DNA of 64,000 bases from an uncultured Bacilli bacterium (GTDB taxonomy: Bacteria > Bacillota_I > Bacilli_A > RF39 > UBA660). Below the pieces are notes generated by a model, which saw only the letters and a program-made list of their open reading frames with translations, did no database searches and was not told where the DNA came from. This document shows, in pieces, positions 3,959 through 63,941 of this stretch. The position numbers were made by a program, and so were the translations under genes. The stretch's first letter is position 1, and every line of letters starts with the position of its first letter. Location of the stretch: positions 125,602-189,601 of the forward strand of contig CAKOWQ010000001.1 in assembly GCA_934122395.1 (NCBI GenBank). Direction: 5' to 3'.

Positions 3959-6511
3959 ATGAAACGTAGTGAAGTAGATAGGACTAAATTAAGTCCTATG
4001 ATGCAGCAATATTTAGATATTAAAGACAAGTATAATGATACCATTATCTTTTTTCGTCTTGGAGACTTTTATGAAATGTTCTTTGAAGATGCAGTTATCT
4101 GTAGTAGAGAATTAGAACTAGCATTAACTGGTAGAAATGCAGGCCTTGAAGAAAGAGTTCCAATGTGTGGTATTCCATATCATGCTTATATTGGATATTT
4201 AACTAAATTAGTAGATAAAGGTTATAAAGTGGCTATCTGTGAACAACTAACAGATCCTAAAGATACTAAAGGTATGGTAGATAGAGATGTCGTTCAAGTA
4301 ATTACTAAAGGTACTATGCTTGATAATACTTTGAATGAAAAAGATAATAGTTATGTTGGTAATATATATGATTTTGAATATTGTTATGGGGTTACTTATA
4401 CTGATATTACTACCGGATACTTCTATGCTTTAATATTAGAACACGATCAAAATAAACTAATAAAAGAAATAGTTAATCGTAATATTATTGAAGTAATAGT
4501 AAATGATAAAATAGATCGTGAAATAATAAGCGTATTGAGAGACAATTATCATTTATTGGTAACTATTACTGATGGATTATGTGAGGATAGTGAATATAGT
4601 TATTTATATGATAAGATTGATGATATTAGAATAGTAACGGCAGTAAAGCACTTATTACAATACTTGATTGACGTTAAAAAAGGTAATTTATCACACTTAC
4701 AAAAAGTAGAAGTAGTTGATACTAATAAATATTTAACTTTTGATATACATACTAAAAGGAACCTAGAACTTACTGAAACTATTAGATTAGGTGAAAGAAC
4801 TTATTCACTTTTATGGCTACTTGATAAAACTAAAACAGCAATGGGTAGTAGAGCATTAAAATCTAATATTGAAAATCCATTAACTGATGTTAAAGAAATA
4901 AATTCACGATACGATATTATTGAAAAATTACTTACTGAATTTATATTAAAAGAAGAATTGATACGTAATTTAAATGAAGTATATGACTTAGAACGTTTAG
5001 CCGGAAGAATTAGTTATGGTAACTTAAATGCTAGAGACTTGTTACAGTTAAAAAACTCTTTAAAAGTATTACCGGATATAAAAAGAATATTGGAAGAGAT
5101 TAAATATCCTAAGACTATTAATACTTTGGATGATGTATATGATTTATTGGAAAAATCAATTAATGATGATGCTCCTATTACAGTAAAAGAAGGTGGATTA
5201 ATTAAAGAAGGTTATTCTAGTGAGTTAGATGAATTAAAAAGTATTAGTAGTGGTTCTAAAGACTTTATTTTAAAAATAGAACAAGATGAAAAAGAACGTA
5301 CTGGAATTAAAAACTTAAAAGTAGGATTTAATAAAGTATTTGGTTATTATATAGAAGTATCTAAGAGCAATATTCCTTTAATTAAAGATGAGTATGGCTA
5401 CGATAGAAAACAAACTCTAGCTAACTGTGAGAGATTTATTACACCTCTTCTAAAAGAAAAAGAAAATATTATTTTAGGGGCTGAAGAGAAAATAATTAAT
5501 TTAGAATATAAATTATTTATTGAAATACGTGATTATATTCGTGAATACATTGGAATAATTCAAGATGTTTCAAGAGTTATTGCTGAAGTTGATATGATGG
5601 CTTCTTTAGCGACTGTTAGTGAAGAAAATGGTTATGTTAGACCTGTTATTACTAATGAACGAGTAATTTCTATTAAAGATGGACGTCATCCAGTAGTAGA
5701 AAAGGTAAGTAAAAAAGAATATGTACCTAATGATATTATGATGGGAAAAGGTGTTGATATATTACTTATTACTGGACCTAATATGGCTGGTAAATCAACT
5801 TATATGCGACAACTTGCAATTACTGTTATAATGGCTCAAATAGGGTCTTTTGTACCAGCTAAGAGTTGTACTATTCCTATATTTGATAAGATCTTTACAA
5901 GAATAGGTGCTAGTGATGATTTAGTTAGTGGTGAATCTACTTTTATGGTAGAAATGAAAGAAGCTAATAATGCTATTCAAGAAGCTACTCCTAATAGTTT
6001 AATACTATTTGATGAATTAGGTAGAGGAACTGCAACATATGATGGTATGAGTCTTGCTCAGGCAATACTTGAATATATTCATGATAAGATTAAAGCTAAA
6101 ACATTATTTTCAACTCACTATCATGAATTAACAACTCTATCAGCTGATTTAACAAATTTAAGAAACGTTCATGTAAGTGCTATAGAAGAAGATGGCAAAA
6201 TTACTTTCTTACATAAAATAAAACAAGGGGCAGTAGATAAAAGTTATGGTATCCATGTAGCGTCTTTAGCAAAGCTTCCTAAATCTTTAATTGAACGTGC
6301 TAATGAAATACTTGATGTGTATGAAAATAAAAACAATAAAAAGCAACCGTTCGTTCAAACATCGTTATTTTTAAATGCTGATGAAAAAGAACAAGAAGAA
6401 GAGAATTATGTAGAAGAAAAAATAAAAGAAATAGATCCGTTAAAAATGACTCCTATTGAAGCTTTAAATTTCCTATACGAATTAAAAAAGTCTTTAAAAG
6501 ACAAAGAATAA
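3959..6511 (+). CDS. mutS: DNA mismatch repair protein MutS
   Basis: 850 aa. Motifs GPNMAGKSTYMRQ (Walker A), DELGRGT, STHYHEL. N-terminal mismatch-binding domain. Confidence 0.95.
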   Translation: MKRSEVDRTKLSPMMQQYLDIKDKYNDTIIFFRLGDFYEMFFEDAVICSRELELALTGRNAGLEERVPMCGIPYHAYIGYLTKLVDKGYKVAICEQLTDPKDTKGMVDRDVVQVITKGTMLDNTLNEKDNSYVGNIYDFEYCYGVTYTDITTGYFYALILEHDQNKLIKEIVNRNIIEVIVNDKIDREIISVLRDNYHLLVTITDGLCEDSEYSYLYDKIDDIRIVTAVKHLLQYLIDVKKGNLSHLQKVEVVDTNKYLTFDIHTKRNLELTETIRLGERTYSLLWLLDKTKTAMGSRALKSNIENPLTDVKEINSRYDIIEKLLTEFILKEELIRNLNEVYDLERLAGRISYGNLNARDLLQLKNSLKVLPDIKRILEEIKYPKTINTLDDVYDLLEKSINDDAPITVKEGGLIKEGYSSELDELKSISSGSKDFILKIEQDEKERTGIKNLKVGFNKVFGYYIEVSKSNIPLIKDEYGYDRKQTLANCERFITPLLKEKENIILGAEEKIINLEYKLFIEIRDYIREYIGIIQDVSRVIAEVDMMASLATVSEENGYVRPVITNERVISIKDGRHPVVEKVSKKEYVPNDIMMGKGVDILLITGPNMAGKSTYMRQLAITVIMAQIGSFVPAKSCTIPIFDKIFTRIGASDDLVSGESTFMVEMKEANNAIQEATPNSLILFDELGRGTATYDGMSLAQAILEYIHDKIKAKTLFSTHYHELTTLSADLTNLRNVHVSAIEEDGKITFLHKIKQGAVDKSYGIHVASLAKLPKSLIERANEILDVYENKNNKKQPFVQTSLFLNADEKEQEEENYVEEKIKEIDPLKMTPIEALNFLYELKKSLKDKE

Positions 6512-9108: not shown

Positions 9109-9219
9109 ACACCCTTAAAAAAGGTTGTTTTTTTTATGGAATAATTTACCAAATAAAAACTTAATGGTTAAGGTTTATGATTAACTGTACAGTAAAAAAT
9201 AAAAAAGAGAATAAGTATC

Positions 9220-9249
9220 TTGCCAAATTCCTAGGGGGGGTGGTATAGT
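9220..9249 (+). promoter_or_regulatory. Sigma-A-type promoter with a G7 homopolymer in the spacer (putative phase-variation switch) for the 9296 gene
   Basis: TTGCCA (-35), 18-nt spacer aattcctaGGGGGGGtgg, then TGgTATAGT (extended -10). A similar architecture with G11 sits upstream of the paralog at 62394–63884. Confidence 0.55.
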
Positions 9250-9295
9250 AATTAAAGATAAATATAATTCGGAGCAATAATGAAAGAGAAGTATT

Positions 9296-10750
9296 ATGAA
9301 TAAGAAACAAATAATAATAGTTGCAATGTGTTTAGTAGTATGTTTAATGATAGTAGGATATTCTATACTTGGACAGAACCTAAATATAGATGGAACGGCA
9401 GATATAGAGTCCAATTGGAATATATTATTTACTAGTGTAACAGCAAAAGAACAAACAAGTGGTGCAACATTTACTAGTACTCCTACAATAAGTGGAACAA
9501 CTCTAACATTTGGATTAGATTTAAAAGCACCAGGAGATGGAGTAAAGTTAGATGTAACAGTAGCAAATAAAGGAACATTAAATGCAATAATAAATAATAT
9601 TGAAGCCAAAAAGGGTGCTAATGAAGTAGTAAAGATAGAAATAACAGGAATAAAGAAAGGCGACAAACTAGGAAAAGGTGAATCAAAGACATTTGAAATT
9701 TATATAACATTTGATTCATCTGTAACAGATCAGCCAATAATGGATAGTGATATGTTAAGCGTGAGTGTAGACTTTGTCCAAGATGTAGGACAGACAATTA
9801 CAAGTGAAGACTTAGAAATAGTATCAATGGGATTAAGAAAGAAGATATTAAGAGATAATGAAGCACAAGCTGATACAAATATAGATTTTTCACAAATAAG
9901 TAGTGATACAAATGGGAAGGGCTTGTATTATACTTCAACAAACACTGAAGATAATAAAATAACATATTATTTTAGAGGAGCAGTAGAAAACAATTATGTA
10001 ACATTCGCTGGATTCACATGGCGAATAATAAGAATAAACGAAGATGGTAGCATAAGATTAATAAAGAAAGACACAATAGACTCTACAAAATTTGATAATG
10101 ATGATGGAGATGCAGCCTATGTAGGATATATGTATGGAACGCCGGACTCGTCGACATACGAGGAAACGCATAAAAATATTAATTCTAGTACTGTAAAAGA
10201 AGTGGTTGATACGTGGTATGAAAGTAATTTAATTGATTATACTTCGTTTTTATCAGATTCAGGTTTCTGCGGGGATAGAAGTATGGCTTCTAGTGCAGGT
10301 GTGTGGAGTGATATAGATACTGCATTAGGTTACGGATTTAATTATACATATTATGGAGCTAATAATAGATTAGATATAAACAGTACTCCACAATTTAAAT
10401 GCCCACAAGAAAACGACCTGTATACAACAACAACTGCCACGAAGGGTAACAAAGCATTAACATATCCGATAGGTTTAATAACAGCAGATGAAGCATCGTA
10501 TGCAGGAGCAGTACGTAACATATCAAACAAAACCAATTATTTAGCAGCAGCAGGTATATTCTGGACAATGTCACCGGCATCTTCTAGTAAAAAAGCTTAT
10601 GTCTTACGGGTACACACCGATGGCCGTATAGCTGCCGAAAACATTTTAACTGATAGATATGCTCGTCCAGTTATAAATCTCAAGCCAACAATAGAGATAA
10701 CAAAAGGTGATGGAACCCAAAATAATCCATATGTTATTAAAACAAACTAA
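9296..10750 (+). CDS. Secreted TasA/camelysin-like N-terminal domain protein with a large conserved C-terminal domain of unknown function (long paralog 1)
   Basis: Sec signal MNKKQIIIVAMCLVVCLMIVGYS, then a core TLTFGLDLKAPGDGVKLDVTVANKGTLNAIINNI resembling TasA/CalY L-x-PGD…N-G-S-L-A-I. About 85% nt identity in sampled stretches to the 62394–63884 gene. Confidence 0.55.
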   Translation: MNKKQIIIVAMCLVVCLMIVGYSILGQNLNIDGTADIESNWNILFTSVTAKEQTSGATFTSTPTISGTTLTFGLDLKAPGDGVKLDVTVANKGTLNAIINNIEAKKGANEVVKIEITGIKKGDKLGKGESKTFEIYITFDSSVTDQPIMDSDMLSVSVDFVQDVGQTITSEDLEIVSMGLRKKILRDNEAQADTNIDFSQISSDTNGKGLYYTSTNTEDNKITYYFRGAVENNYVTFAGFTWRIIRINEDGSIRLIKKDTIDSTKFDNDDGDAAYVGYMYGTPDSSTYEETHKNINSSTVKEVVDTWYESNLIDYTSFLSDSGFCGDRSMASSAGVWSDIDTALGYGFNYTYYGANNRLDINSTPQFKCPQENDLYTTTTATKGNKALTYPIGLITADEASYAGAVRNISNKTNYLAAAGIFWTMSPASSSKKAYVLRVHTDGRIAAENILTDRYARPVINLKPTIEITKGDGTQNNPYVIKTN

Positions 10751-13626: not shown

Positions 13627-15408
13627 ATGAGTAAAATAAAATTAATGAGTGAAGACTTAGCTAATAAAATAGCAGCAGGTGAAGTAGTTGAAAGAACTAT
13701 GAACGTTGTTAAAGAATTAGTAGAAAATGCAATAGATGCTAAAAGTACCTCAATAAAAATTGATTTAATAGATAGTGGAGTTAAAGAAATATCTGTTACG
13801 GATGATGGAGTAGGGATGGATAAAGATGATGCTGTTTTGGCATTTTCTAGACATGCTACTAGTAAATTAAAGACTTTAGAAGATTTATTTAATATTGATA
13901 GTTTAGGTTTTCGTGGCGAAGCACTTCCATCTATCGCATCAGTTAGTAATGTAACTTTAAAAACTAGTGATGGAGTTACTGGCACTGAAGTTGTTATTCA
14001 TGGAGGAGAAATAATTAGTGTTAATTCTAGTGACTTAAAAAAAGGAACTAAAATAACTGTTAGTGATCTTTTCTATAATACTCCAGTTAGATTAAAATAC
14101 TTAAAGAATTTATATATAGAACTTGCTAATATAGTTGAATATGTTAATAAAATGGCTTTGTCTTTTCCTAATATTAGATTTGTTTTAACTAATAATGAAA
14201 AAGTACTTTTAAATACGGATGGACAAGGTAACTTACTTAAAGTTATTTATAGTATTTATGGGCTTGATGTTTCAAGAAAAATGATTAAGATCTCTGGTGA
14301 GAATAAGGATTATAGAATAGAAGGATATGTATCTTATCCTGAAGTTACTAGAGCAAGTAGAAATGTTATAACAACACTTGTAAATGGACGCGTAATTAGA
14401 AATAATGAATTAATTAGAACTATATTAGATAGTTATCACACATATATACCAGAAGGTAAAAATCCAATAGTGGTATTGAATATTGAGGTAGATCCATACT
14501 TGATAGATATTAATATTCACCCAACTAAAATGGATATTAAGTTTTCAGAATTTTCAGGATTAAAAGAACTTATTACTACTACTATAACTAAACAATTAGA
14601 AAATATTAATTTAATTCCTAAAGTTGAAGTAGCTACTTATAAAGATGTTAAAGTTGAGAATGGTACAACAGACTTAAAAAATATAATTGATAGTTATATT
14701 GAATCTAAAACACCTTCTCCTACATTAGAAAAAACATATGAAAATATAGAAGAAGTGACATTAGATTTTAGTGTTAGTGAAAATAGTGATATTAAAGAGC
14801 ATGAGGGTGAGGGTAGTGAATTTCGTGTTAAAAAGATGTATCCCGTTGGATTAGTGCATGCTACTTATATTATTGCTGAGAATGAAGATGGAATGTATAT
14901 AATAGATCAACACGCTGCTAATGAACGAATTAATTATGAAAAATATTTAAAAGCAATGGGTACCCATGATAATAAAATGATTGATTTATTAGTACCTATT
15001 AAAATTGAACTTCCTAATAATGATTATATTATTTTAAAAGAACATTGGGATCTATTAGAAGGCCTAAATTTTATTGTTGAAGAGTTTGGAATAAATACCA
15101 TATTAATAAGGAGTCATCCTTTTTGGTTACCTAATTATAATGTAGAAGAAGCAATAAGACGTATTATTGAGATAATAGTATCAAAAGAAGCTTTTGATAG
15201 TTATAAGTTTACAGAGAAGGTTGCTACTACTTTAGCTTGTAAAATGAGTATTAAAGCTAATGATCATATTTCTCTTGAACAAATGGAATATTTGCTTGAT
15301 ACTTTAAGAAAGTCAGAAAACCCATTTACTTGTCCACATGGTAGACCTACTATTATATCTTATTCAAAATATGAACTTGAAAAAATGTTTAAAAGAGCAA
15401 TGAACTAA
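13627..15408 (+). CDS. mutL: DNA mismatch repair protein MutL
   Basis: 593 aa. GHKL ATPase N-terminal motifs (AAGEVVER…VKELVENAIDA, DDGVGM) and a C-terminal dimerisation domain. Confidence 0.93.
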   Translation: MSKIKLMSEDLANKIAAGEVVERTMNVVKELVENAIDAKSTSIKIDLIDSGVKEISVTDDGVGMDKDDAVLAFSRHATSKLKTLEDLFNIDSLGFRGEALPSIASVSNVTLKTSDGVTGTEVVIHGGEIISVNSSDLKKGTKITVSDLFYNTPVRLKYLKNLYIELANIVEYVNKMALSFPNIRFVLTNNEKVLLNTDGQGNLLKVIYSIYGLDVSRKMIKISGENKDYRIEGYVSYPEVTRASRNVITTLVNGRVIRNNELIRTILDSYHTYIPEGKNPIVVLNIEVDPYLIDINIHPTKMDIKFSEFSGLKELITTTITKQLENINLIPKVEVATYKDVKVENGTTDLKNIIDSYIESKTPSPTLEKTYENIEEVTLDFSVSENSDIKEHEGEGSEFRVKKMYPVGLVHATYIIAENEDGMYIIDQHAANERINYEKYLKAMGTHDNKMIDLLVPIKIELPNNDYIILKEHWDLLEGLNFIVEEFGINTILIRSHPFWLPNYNVEEAIRRIIEIIVSKEAFDSYKFTEKVATTLACKMSIKANDHISLEQMEYLLDTLRKSENPFTCPHGRPTIISYSKYELEKMFKRAMN

Positions 15409-39755: not shown

Positions 39756-39985
39756 TTCTAAAAAAACGCGATAATTTCTATCCCATAAGGACGAATTATC
39801 GCGGTACCACCTTAATTTATGATTAATAATCATACACTCAAAGTTATAAAGTAACTAACTAATAAACTCATAATGTGTAATTCAATCGTATTATATGTTT
39901 AATTTCACCAAACTTAAACTCTCTAAAATATAACTAACACAATCTACTTATCATTAATCAACATTTATTTAACATAAGACAATTA
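39756..39985 (-). promoter_or_regulatory. T-box riboswitch leader (Tyr-responsive) with terminator/antiterminator
   Basis: Minus strand: extended -10 TGATATAAT, AGAGAG box, candidate specifier UACA, T-box sequence AAATTAAGGTGGTACCGCG, then a 10-bp terminator stem CGCGATAATT/AATTATCGCG plus U7 immediately before the tyrS RBS. Confidence 0.8.
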
Positions 39986-48944: not shown

Positions 48945-49103
48945 TTTTTTACCTCCTTTATATATTTCTAGACTCGCTTTTAAGGTAACAATTACTTGTT
49001 TTATAACCTAATCAATGCGGTTTGAGCTATAAAGGCTACAAACAAGAAGATTTTATCATAATTATTTACCCAAGTCAATAAAAAAAGACTATTATAGCCT
49101 TTC

Positions 49104-53795: not shown

Positions 53796-53879
53796 TGGTG
53801 CGGGTAACAGGAGTTGAACCTGCATGCCTAAGGCGCTAGATCCTAAGTCTAGTGCGTCTGCCAATTCCGCCATACCCGC
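53796..53879 (-). tRNA. tRNA-Leu (anticodon TAG), class II with long variable arm
   Basis: Reverse complement GCGGGTATGGCGGAATTGGCAGACGCACTAGACTTAGGATCTAGCGCCTTAGGCATGCAGGTTCAACTCCTGTTACCCGCACCA. Cloverleaf with encoded CCA. Confidence 0.8.
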
Positions 53880-53887
53880 AAAATAAA

Positions 53888-53964
53888 TGGTGGACCCTAT
53901 AGGACTCGAACCTATGACCGTCCGGTTATGAGCCGGATGCTCTAACCAACTGAGCTAAGGGTCC
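53888..53964 (-). tRNA. tRNA with CAT anticodon, most like tRNA-Ile2 (lysidine) / tRNA-Met
   Basis: Reverse complement GGACCCTTAGCTCAGTTGGTTAGAGCATCCGGCTCATAACCGGACGGTCATAGGTTCGAGTCCTATAGGGTCCACCA. Closely resembles Bacillus tRNA-Ile(LAU). Confidence 0.8.
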
Positions 53965-58226: not shown

Positions 58227-59219
58227 CTATTTTACTAATACCCATTCATCGTATCCATAAGTATTAGTAATTGCTCCAGTTGTCCTAATCTCTTCTTTTA
58301 ATACTACAACAGGTCTTGCTCCAAATGGACCACTAACAAGATCAAGTATACGCTGGCCACCATAAGTTGGCGCACCAGTACCTAAAGTAGATTTAGTAAA
58401 ACCTTTTAAGCAGGTTTTATCATCACACAAATCAGCTAATACATAACCTGCATCAGTATTTGATACTGAAGTTTTCAAATCAGTTAATATGTTACCTGAA
58501 TCATTATTTTTAGTTGAATTCTTCAAATCAGCTTCATTAGCCATCCTAGCACTCTCTGCATAATCACTATTAACAAAAGTATTCCAATCGTATGGATTAC
58601 TGGTAATAATACTAGTATCTGTAAACTTACTATTATCTCCAGTAAAGAAATAATATGTAGATGCCGAATAAGCAAGTTTATCATCAGTGTTATTATTAGA
58701 TGCTAAGTAATAACAGAATGGAGATCCTGCATGAATAATTGTTACTGTACTTTCACTAATTGAAAGAATTCGCCATCCATCATATTTATTAGTATTTCTA
58801 CTAGCGCATGTAATACTATTATTCTTACTAGTACCAGCATTATAACCACCAAATTCGAAATCATCTCCTTCTGGTAATGCTACAGTACTTGCCCATGTTC
58901 CAGCATCATAACTAACAAAATCACCTACTTGAGCTTTTTCTGCTAAAAGAAATGTCACTTCTTTTTTACCTATACAATTATTATATTCTCTTGCATCACA
59001 CTTACCACCATTTAAGTAACACTCTTCTAATATAGCCTCGCTAAGTGCACATTTATTCATTTTATCTTCTACACTTTTTACTAGTTCCTGATTCGTATCT
59101 TTACTTGATTTCATTATTCCAAAAATAAGCATTAAAATAATTATGATCAATGATAAAGTTCCATATAAAATAGTAGAAACTGCAAACCCCTTATTATTAA
59201 GTTTAATCATAACTTTCAC
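58227..59219 (-). CDS. Secreted Cys-rich protein with prepilin-like N-terminus (candidate minor pilin/adhesin)
   Basis: N-terminus MKVMIKLNNKG|FAVSTILYGTLSLIIIILMLIFGI: KGF motif and hydrophobic helix as in the 762 and 1324 pilins, but Thr rather than Glu at +5. 12 Cys. Confidence 0.45.
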   Translation of the reverse strand: MKVMIKLNNKGFAVSTILYGTLSLIIIILMLIFGIMKSSKDTNQELVKSVEDKMNKCALSEAILEECYLNGGKCDAREYNNCIGKKEVTFLLAEKAQVGDFVSYDAGTWASTVALPEGDDFEFGGYNAGTSKNNSITCASRNTNKYDGWRILSISESTVTIIHAGSPFCYYLASNNNTDDKLAYSASTYYFFTGDNSKFTDTSIITSNPYDWNTFVNSDYAESARMANEADLKNSTKNNDSGNILTDLKTSVSNTDAGYVLADLCDDKTCLKGFTKSTLGTGAPTYGGQRILDLVSGPFGARPVVVLKEEIRTTGAITNTYGYDEWVLVK

Positions 59220-62393: not shown

Positions 62394-63884
62394 TTAATTA
62401 GTTTTTATAATGTATGGGTTATTTTTAGTTCCGTTTCCACCCATGATTTGAGCATCAAATTTTAAATTGATAACTGGTCGAACATCCCATTCACGATAAG
62501 AACCATCGTAACTCGTTTGTCCCTCGTCTACTACAAGGCATACATAAGCAGTTGAAGAAACATAATTAGGCGATATCATCCAAAAGCTTATTCCCGAATT
62601 CATATAATAACCATTATTTTCCCAGCCACTAATTCCTCCTGCATAATTCGTTTCATCAGCCGTTATTAATCCGATTGGATAATCTAGAGCTTTATTACCT
62701 TTATTAGTCGTCTTAGTTGTATATAAATCATTTACTTGAGGACATTTGAATTGTGGCTTCTTCCTAGTCCAATTTTTAAATGATTCTAGTCTTGCTGTAG
62801 ATCCATAAACCGTTTCGTTAACACCATATCCTAAAGCAGTATCACCTGGCTTCCAAATATTAGGGGCAGATGCTACACTTCTATCTCCACAGAATCCTGA
62901 ATCAGCTAAATAACTTGAATAACTCATTAAATTATTTTGATACCATGTATCTATAAAAGTCTTTATTGTACTTGAATTAATATTTGCATGTGTCTCTTCA
63001 TACGTTGAAGCACCAACTGTCCCATACATATATCCTACATATGCATTATCAGTATCATCCTCATTAAACTTGCTCTTGCCTATCGAATCTTGCTTTATTA
63101 ATCTTATTGAACCATCTTCATTTATTCTTACTATTCTCCATGTGAATCCTGCGAATGTTACATAGTTATTTTCTACTTCTCCTCTAAAATAATATGTTAC
63201 TTTATTATCTTCGGTATTGGTACTTGTATAATATAATCCTTTACCATTTGTATCACTACTTATCTTAGAAAAATCTATACTTGTATCCGCTTGTGCTTCA
63301 TTGTCTTTCAATATTTTTGCTGCTAGTCTTGTTGGTACTATTATAGTATCATCTGTTACTATCGTTTGTCCTGTATCTTGTACATAATTAATATTTATTG
63401 TTAATGTACTATCTATTAAATTAGGTTGGCTTGTTACATTGTTATCATATGATATTGTTACATCAAATGTCGTTGTTGTTTTACTTGCTAATTTGTCTCC
63501 CTTTTTAATACCTGTTATTTCAAAATTTATTGCATCACTTCCAGTCTCGCTTGCTGTTATATCATCTATTACTGCATTTAATGTCCCTTGATTTGCTACT
63601 GTTATTTTGTAGACTATATTGTCTCCTGGGCTTGTTAAGTCTATATTGAATGTTGCTGTTGTTCCACTTGCTGTTGGTGTTTCTTTTATCTTTATTCCAC
63701 TTGTTTTGAACACCTCTGTTATGTCTGTAAATACCACTTTCCAGGTTGACTCTATACTTGATGTTCCTGTTATTGTTAGTTTTGTTGCAAAGGCTGCATA
63801 CCCTACTGCCATTATACATATTAAGCTACACATTGCTATTATCAATATCTTCTTACTTTTCATATACTTTTCTTCCATCTCCAT
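62394..63884 (-). CDS. Secreted TasA/camelysin-like N-terminal domain protein with conserved C-terminal domain (long paralog 2)
   Basis: 496 aa. Signal …AMCSLICIMAVGYAAF|ATKLTITGT. Core ATFNIDLTSPGDNIVYKITVANQGTLNAVIDDI. C-terminal domain collinear with the 9296 gene. RBS GGAGG favours the second or third Met as the start. Confidence 0.55.
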   Translation of the reverse strand: MEMEEKYMKSKKILIIAMCSLICIMAVGYAAFATKLTITGTSSIESTWKVVFTDITEVFKTSGIKIKETPTASGTTATFNIDLTSPGDNIVYKITVANQGTLNAVIDDITASETGSDAINFEITGIKKGDKLASKTTTTFDVTISYDNNVTSQPNLIDSTLTININYVQDTGQTIVTDDTIIVPTRLAAKILKDNEAQADTSIDFSKISSDTNGKGLYYTSTNTEDNKVTYYFRGEVENNYVTFAGFTWRIVRINEDGSIRLIKQDSIGKSKFNEDDTDNAYVGYMYGTVGASTYEETHANINSSTIKTFIDTWYQNNLMSYSSYLADSGFCGDRSVASAPNIWKPGDTALGYGVNETVYGSTARLESFKNWTRKKPQFKCPQVNDLYTTKTTNKGNKALDYPIGLITADETNYAGGISGWENNGYYMNSGISFWMISPNYVSSTAYVCLVVDEGQTSYDGSYREWDVRPVINLKFDAQIMGGNGTKNNPYIIKTN

Positions 63885-63910
63885 CCTCCATTATTATTTT
63901 ATCTGTAATT

Positions 63911-63941
63911 ATTATACCCCCCCCCCCTAGGGATTTTGCAA
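63911..63941 (-). promoter_or_regulatory. Sigma-A-type promoter with a G11 (C11 on the + strand) homopolymer in the spacer (putative phase-variation switch)
   Basis: Minus strand: TTGCAA aatcccta GGGGGGGGGGG TATAAT, spacer 19 nt. Conserved with the 9220–9249 promoter, which has G7 and an 18-nt spacer. Confidence 0.55.

Follow-up and report, generated by a model that had tools for sequence, protein, structure and literature searches.

Changes in the length of the spacer between fixed -35 and -10 hexamers alter the activity of sigma-70-type promoters. Promoter switches based on simple-sequence repeats (SSRs) are known mainly from pathogens such as Neisseria, Haemophilus and Mycoplasma; for gut commensals, most of what is known of phase variation concerns the invertible promoters of Bacteroidales. 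In Neisseria meningitidis, porA has a poly-G tract between the -35 and -10 elements, and opc and fetA have poly-C tracts. At these loci, which are single-copy and belong to a Gram-negative pathogen with mismatch repair present, a G/C homopolymer of about 9–14 nt lies in or next to the spacer, steps of one base lead to high, intermediate or no transcription, and the optimum is a 17-nt spacer. The vlp genes of Mycoplasma hyorhinis carry poly-A tracts in their promoter spacers (Citti and Wise, 1995, as summarised in PMC10502178), and each gene forms its own transcription unit, with insertions and deletions switching the genes independently (PMC10502178). For Vmm of M. mycoides the repeat is a TA dinucleotide within the promoter spacer, the repeat number determining whether transcription is ON or OFF (PMC10502178).

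The stretch of DNA analysed here (the window, 64,000 nucleotides with a GC content of 27.6%) contains two members of a gene family, paralog 1 and paralog 2. The promoter of paralog 2 contains a long homopolymer, and the elements of this gene are as follows:

63936 to 63941, minus strand: -35 hexamer TTGCAA of the paralog 2 promoter, read directly
63928 to 63935, minus strand: aatcccta, the fixed 8-nt part of the spacer, read directly and from the paralog alignment
63917 to 63927, minus strand: G11 homopolymer (C11 on the plus strand), adjoining the -10 hexamer, read directly
63911 to 63916, minus strand: -10 hexamer TATAAT, read directly
63885 to 63889, minus strand: ribosome-binding site GGAGG, 6 nt 5' of the ATG at 63878, read directly
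62394 to 63878, minus strand: coding sequence of paralog 2, 494 aa

Read on the minus strand, the promoter is cTTGCAA-aatcccta-GGGGGGGGGGG-TATAAT-aattacagataaaataataatGGAGGatggagATG with a spacer of 19 nt, and re-reading returned the same promoter coordinates, G11 tract and spacer length as the initial annotation. The -35 hexamer at the equivalent position of homologous family promoters is TTGCCA, TTGCAA or TTGAAA, and the fixed part of the spacer is kept as aa(t/a)(c/t)ccta in the paralogs of the same species. Public assemblies start the identical protein of 494 aa (P0001), which is present on five contigs, at this same ATG (63878). Only two G/C runs of at least 6 nt occur in the window, the G11 run at 63917–63927 and a G7 run at 9234–9240. 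At 27.6% GC about 4e-5 runs of at least 11 nt would be expected in 64 kb, which excludes a chance origin of the G11 run. Paralog 2 therewith has, between its -35 and -10 elements, a homopolymer of the size at which length is mutable (about 8 or more). The spacing had also been described as lying off the usual optimum, in agreement with what near-consensus promoters of these genomes look like: the spacers of stringent consensus promoters, counted over the window and the related loci, are most often 17 nt long (17 matches vs 4–6 at 18–20 nt), as compared to 19 nt in paralog 2. A promoter scan limited to a spacing of 16–18 nt calls the promoter of paralog 1 (10/12 matches), but not that of paralog 2.

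The designation of the protein as “TasA-like” is not supported, since neither TasA/camelysin (Peptidase_M73) nor a SipW-type signal was matched in the PDB-profile search or in searches of Pfam at E up to 0.1 and of NCBIfam at E up to 1; the C-terminal domain instead resembles DUF6273. In the AF2 model of paralog 2 (mean pLDDT 75), residues 2–24 are predicted with low confidence to form an N-terminal hydrophobic helix, which would be a signal or an anchor, followed by a predicted Ig-like β-sandwich (about 45–170) and a C-terminal mixed domain that is DUF6273-like (about 185–494). In its fold, the C-terminal domain is similar to the DUF6273 domain solved for ThomasA, the IgA protease of Thomasclavelia ramosa. 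The window proteins stay below the Pfam threshold for DUF6273 (PF19789; 14.2 and 13.6 bits vs 23.5), and several homologues at 61–66% identity have precomputed PF19789 hits. No family exceeded the threshold for the two paralogs in Pfam, NCBIfam, PHROGs or the PDB sequence-profile search, and Foldseek against the PDB gave nothing at E≤1e-3, only generic β-sandwiches. DUF6273 domains of the phage tentaclins are C-type-lectin-like and are targets of DGRs (PMC10743442), and the N-terminal DUF6273 domain of ThomasA (PDB 9qa6) is dispensable for catalysis (PMC12402451). The C-terminal module of ~300 aa recurs in giant metagenomic proteins (P0121, 4905 aa; P0122, P0127, P0129), with up to 11 matched stretches. 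Two observations concern pilin-related genes: in L093 (1–2682) the genes for a T2SSF platform protein and a prepilin peptidase (Peptidase_A24) are directly followed by the same-species paralog P0060, which has a G10 promoter, and the 330-aa protein encoded at 58227–59219 of the window has a pilin-like N-terminus (NNKG-FAVSTILYG). The latter was considered as a relative of the family owing to the “RPV..LK” look of its C-terminus, but BLASTP revealed no relation. The window further contains ordinary Firmicute features, namely a T-box leader upstream of tyrS, a ribosomal L21 leader and two tRNA genes (39784–39970, 48960–49032 and 53799–53964).

The second family member of the window lies between two mismatch-repair genes:

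9220 to 9249, plus strand: promoter of paralog 1, TTGCCA-aattccta-G7-T-GG-TATAGT, with an 18-nt spacer, read directly and from the alignment
9280 to 9303, plus strand: upstream ORF of 7 codons (MKEKYYE, then stop), overlapping the start codon of paralog 1, read directly
9296 to 10750, plus strand: coding sequence of paralog 1, 484 aa, 57% identical to paralog 2 over the full length
3959 to 6511, plus strand: mutS (Pfam MutS_I/III/IV/V)
13627 to 15408, plus strand: mutL (Pfam MutL_C and DNA_mis_repair)

Paralog 1 had been said to have the same promoter skeleton as paralog 2, and the skeleton is indeed common to both, because the two promoters are homologous. The upstream regions are near-identical from the -35 hexamer to ~15 nt 3' of the -10 hexamer, and the upstream alignment (304 columns, 77% mean column identity) extends into the region coding for the signal peptide; judged from this alignment, the two promoters are duplicated copies of one ancestral promoter. 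They are accordingly not the “two independently tract-bearing promoters” of the initial annotation, and the argument that an independent origin speaks for selection fails for these two copies. Furthermore, the tract of paralog 1 is not intact: the G7 run at 9234–9240 is broken by a T at 9241, and this tract is probably locked rather than variable. The T creates a TGn extended -10 element (TGGTATAGT, 9241–9249), so that a single substitution appears both to stabilise the tract and should strengthen the promoter. The promoter of paralog 1 is identical in L002, the one other assembly compared at the DNA level, and the exact protein is found on 22 contigs. The upstream ORF of paralog 1 starts at ATG 9280, has its own GGAG (9271–9274) and ends with a stop overlapping the main start at 9296, while in paralog 2 and most relatives the corresponding MxEKYM peptide is in frame as an N-terminal extension, a difference of 1 nt. 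This arrangement suggests that paralog 1, specifically, is subject to translational coupling or attenuation. Between mutS and mutL lie genes for SLT, CvpA and thioredoxin, the family gene, and genes for an Impact_N protein and uvrC. A loss of mismatch repair was considered as a cause of tract instability and rejected, as both mutS and mutL are present.

Scanning of the GTDB species representatives yielded 452 confirmed family copies, the best 80 of which were taken as loci. These best 80 of the 452 derive from seven MAGs of “uncultured Bacilli bacterium” from Hadza, “BRZ”-labelled and “Lapin” (rabbit) samples, with one to several dozen of them per MAG, and many contigs end inside family genes. 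At the protein level there are more than 5,380 matches among 90%-identity cluster representatives and 9,060 at E≤1e-3 among 50%-identity representatives. Within the 296 kb of related loci, each of the 22 G/C runs of at least 8 nt is a run of G's when read on the coding strand of its family gene; the runs upstream of the matched gene are located ~45–55 nt 5' of its start. All 22 have the arrangement TTGnnn-(7-9 nt)-G10-13-(-10), in which the tract is directly followed by TATAAT in 21 cases and by TACTAT in one. At L065 (1490–1540) a deletion has brought a G12 tract and what remains of a -10 element (TACTAT) into direct contact with the sequence coding for the signal peptide; this copy is probably dead, or else an artefact of assembly. 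Parsing was possible for 47 family promoters, which comprise 24 with a pure tract, 9 with an interrupted G-rich tract and 14 with no tract. The pure tracts are distributed over G10 (8), G11 (10), G12 (5) and G13 (1), corresponding to spacers of 17 nt (1), 18 nt (7), 19 nt (12) and 20 nt (4), and the promoters lacking a tract mostly have spacers of 17–18 nt. A scan of JGI metagenomes with a degenerate promoter pattern gave three matches, all G11; the family was found mostly in ENA assemblies.

The tract is retained across species that differ in their -35 hexamer and fixed part (TTGCCA-aatcccta, TTGAAA-atttcct, TTGCAA-aaaccgat). Selection had been inferred from the two promoters of the window, which is unsound; the valid argument rests on the family-wide pattern, in which the tract has been kept across dozens of paralogs and several species with diverged -35 and fixed parts. 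Moreover, when the window and the loci L001–L111 are taken together (36 distinct pure tracts), a fixed part of 7 nt goes with a modal G12, although this group is small, and one of 8 nt with a modal G11, such that the total spacer is centred on 19 nt whatever the length of the fixed part. The conserved quantity is the total spacer length and not the length of the tract. At several loci a T-run, often with a short hairpin-like repeat 5' of it, abuts the -35 hexamer and leaves no room for another promoter. In a subset of promoters the upstream T-run and the -35 hexamer are separated by a conserved AT-rich leader of ~90 nt, which begins with GG(C/A)AAAATTTACCAA (window ~9139–9219; L001 2850–2940; L093 1055–1140; L103 895–985); the other family promoters have the T-run directly at the -35 hexamer. 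Possible roles of the leader are a regulator site, an UP element or a recombination substrate.

The regularity of this arrangement could also mean that the G-tract is a conserved cis element, either a regulator site or a rigid, A-form-like spacer that tunes melting, and that changes in its length are tolerated slippage noise without any switching. Consistent with this are the strict conservation of the tract position and of its contact with the -10 hexamer, the persistence of interrupted G-rich versions of similar total length, and the centring of the spacer on 19 nt instead of the canonical 17 nt, with no 17-nt state in the group with an 8-nt fixed part. However, a length range of 10 to 13 is unlike a fixed binding site, the family promoters lacking a tract function without one, and pure tracts vary in length while thousands of flanking bases stay fixed (see below). 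Since altered spacer lengths are in addition established to change the activity of promoters of this type, we consider a cis element without switching unlikely.

Comparison of the same promoters between independent samples revealed the following tract lengths:

Family gene downstream of P0051 (L103–L109), 7 samples, 0 mismatches in 2542 nt upstream (1 in one sample): G11, G10, G10, G12, G11, G11 and G10
P0029 (L110 vs L111), 2 samples, no mismatch over 940 nt of upstream and 2497 nt of downstream sequence: G11 vs G10
P0004, from the species of the window (L101 vs L102), 2 samples, no mismatch over 1440 nt of upstream sequence: G12 vs G11
Paralog 2, 4 sequences, identical 115-nt upstream flank and a few other differences in the promoter: G11 in three of them (window, L001 and L003), G10 in the fourth (L087)

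Variants across 63917–63927, as had been predicted, were thus sought by assembly comparison and found, with G11 in three sequences and G10 in L087. The absence of any tract-length polymorphism had been named as evidence that would speak against a switch, and lengths differ at four family promoters, including that of paralog 2. L004 at first sight adds a further G10 allele to those of paralog 2, but its promoter and 5' end are those of another family locus; as a chimera or recombinant it was not counted. The P0004 promoter is also found in a JGI contig, with G11. The repeat number is hence polymorphic between close strains with conserved flanks, as read from short-read consensus sequences, and the tract is the main variable site between the samples. 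By comparison, the interrupted tract upstream of P0051, GGGGGAGGGGG, is invariant in the same seven contigs (L103–L109), and a family promoter without a tract (P0112) is identical in six samples.

All tract lengths are consensus calls from Illumina metagenomes assembled with SPAdes or MEGAHIT, in which homopolymers of 10–12 nt are error-prone. It is therefore conceivable that the tract is real and the differences in its length stem from sequencing or assembly: indel errors are raised in runs of G10–12, and some of the contigs are chimeric or broken inside family genes. Such errors would not, however, spare interrupted tracts or yield recurrent lengths. The consensus calls differ at coverages of 12x to 196x, the same lengths recur across several samples, and in the same contigs both the interrupted tract and the remaining 2.5 kb are free of indels. 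In addition, the lengths have a structured distribution over paralogs and species, in which fixed part and tract compensate for each other. We therefore judge it very improbable that the length differences are errors.

Apart from the tract, the family genes are mosaic, and alleles have 100%-identical blocks in common with different paralogs (L003/L004/L087/L100/L101). L005 and L088, two independent contigs, both have their position 1 at one and the same base, where the N-terminal domain of paralog 2 meets the C-terminal one. The mosaic blocks and shared breakpoints indicate gene conversion, or at least assembly breaks driven by repeats. One may thus ask whether phase variation is brought about in another way, for instance by inversion of the promoter or by recombination and gene conversion among the paralogs, with the tract being incidental. 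The mosaic structure, the contigs that break at the domain boundary and L004, in which the promoter and 5' end of one locus are joined to the 3' end of paralog 2, would be in line with such a mechanism. An inverton was rejected, as the promoter of paralog 2 is flanked by short, imperfect AT-rich inverted repeats only, without inverted repeats of the kind that would flank an invertible promoter, and inverted copies, which would appear as C-runs (of at least 6 nt), are absent from the 296 kb of related family loci. Recombination fits antigenic mosaicism, but not changes of the tract by 1 nt with identical flanks. We attach almost no probability to a mechanism in which the tract is incidental; recombination and slippage of the tract are complementary rather than exclusive.

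Taken together, we regard it as likely that the G11 tract of paralog 2 is a slippage switch, which would make this a phase-variable promoter of a gene for a secreted or surface protein. In the proposed mechanism, the tract would act as a hypermutable simple-sequence repeat in the -35/-10 spacer of a sigma-A-type promoter, and slipped-strand mispairing during replication would lead to the gain or loss of single G's, presumably at a high rate within a clone. As the 3' part of the spacer consists of the tract, right up to the -10 hexamer, each G gained or lost moves the -35 hexamer relative to the -10 hexamer, namely by one base pair and about 34 degrees per step. Both the distance and the rotational phasing of the two elements (17 to 20 nt across the family) would be altered in this way, and the strength of the promoter would change in a heritable and reversible manner. 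By analogy with vlp, Vmm and porA, spacers of 19–20 nt would be weak or OFF and those of 17–18 nt ON. Paralog 2, with 19 nt, is thus predicted to be weak or OFF and one deletion away from the 18-nt state of the sister strain, and paralog 1, with its interrupted tract, 18-nt spacer and TGn extended -10, is predicted to be fixed ON. With about half of the family promoters having their own pure G10–13 tract, each cell lineage would express a different subset of the family, forming a combinatorial “phasome.” The claim of a phase-variable surface-protein promoter accordingly holds up in part: at the level of sequence, the position of the tract, the spacer, the polymorphism and the family pattern all speak for it, whereas the tract of paralog 1 looks locked.

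In the two best-sampled MAGs, one or two promoters have a spacer of 17–18 nt and the others one of 19–20 nt, a distribution that fits with “few ON, most OFF.” G9, which with an 8-nt fixed part would give a 17-nt spacer, does not occur among the 36 distinct pure tracts, so that the optimum for a G-rich spacer might be 18–19 nt and the response might be graded instead of ON/OFF. The alternative to such a shifted optimum is that most copies are OFF.

The mechanism is of a known kind, a classical contingency locus with an SSR in the promoter spacer. What is new is the setting, with poly-G tracts in a genome of 27.6% GC, a DUF6273-like surface family, dozens of switches per genome in some MAGs and an uncultured lineage of gut commensals; the literature searched contained no prior description of the family, of the lineage or of SSR phasomes in gut MAGs, which is not proof of novelty. 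For a lineage-wide system of combinatorial surface variation in human and rabbit gut Bacilli, in which genomes of some MAGs would have dozens of mosaic lectin-like paralogs, about half of them with a poly-G switch, complemented by gene conversion and by “locking” through interruption of the tract, we see an even chance. If it exists, it would be the largest promoter-SSR phasome known to us and a commensal counterpart of the contingency loci of pathogens, and pressure by IgA or phages would be a plausible shaping force. The case suggests that an uncultured low-GC gut lineage has a large family of switches on lectin-like surface proteins. Population heterogeneity would then be readable from metagenomic reads as tract-length spectra, and the family would provide concrete candidates for surface molecules facing the host, IgA or phages in organisms that cannot yet be grown. 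The repeated mosaic genes of the family coincide with many contig ends in these MAGs.

There is a close resemblance to the vlp system of M. hyorhinis, as both involve a low-GC lineage and a multigene family of surface proteins in which each gene has its own homopolymer in the promoter. Unlike vlp, the tract described here is poly-G and not poly-A, in a genome of 27.6% GC, and the proteins are unrelated, lack a lipobox and have an Ig-like and DUF6273-like architecture. The family is also far larger than that of the vlp genes, some related MAGs having dozens of copies in a genome, and its switching is deduced from the promoters. With Vmm of M. mycoides it shares a repeat located within the promoter spacer, although the Vmm repeat is a dinucleotide at a single gene. 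In contrast to ThomasA and the tentaclins, the proteins have neither an M64 peptidase domain nor an associated DGR, and their Pfam score for DUF6273 is below the threshold (14 vs 23.5 bits). As for porA, opc and fetA of Neisseria, a G/C homopolymer lies in or next to the -35/-10 spacer and mismatch repair is present; here, by contrast, the spacers cluster at 18–20 nt, the tract always abuts the -10 hexamer, and the arrangement is replicated over a family of paralogs.
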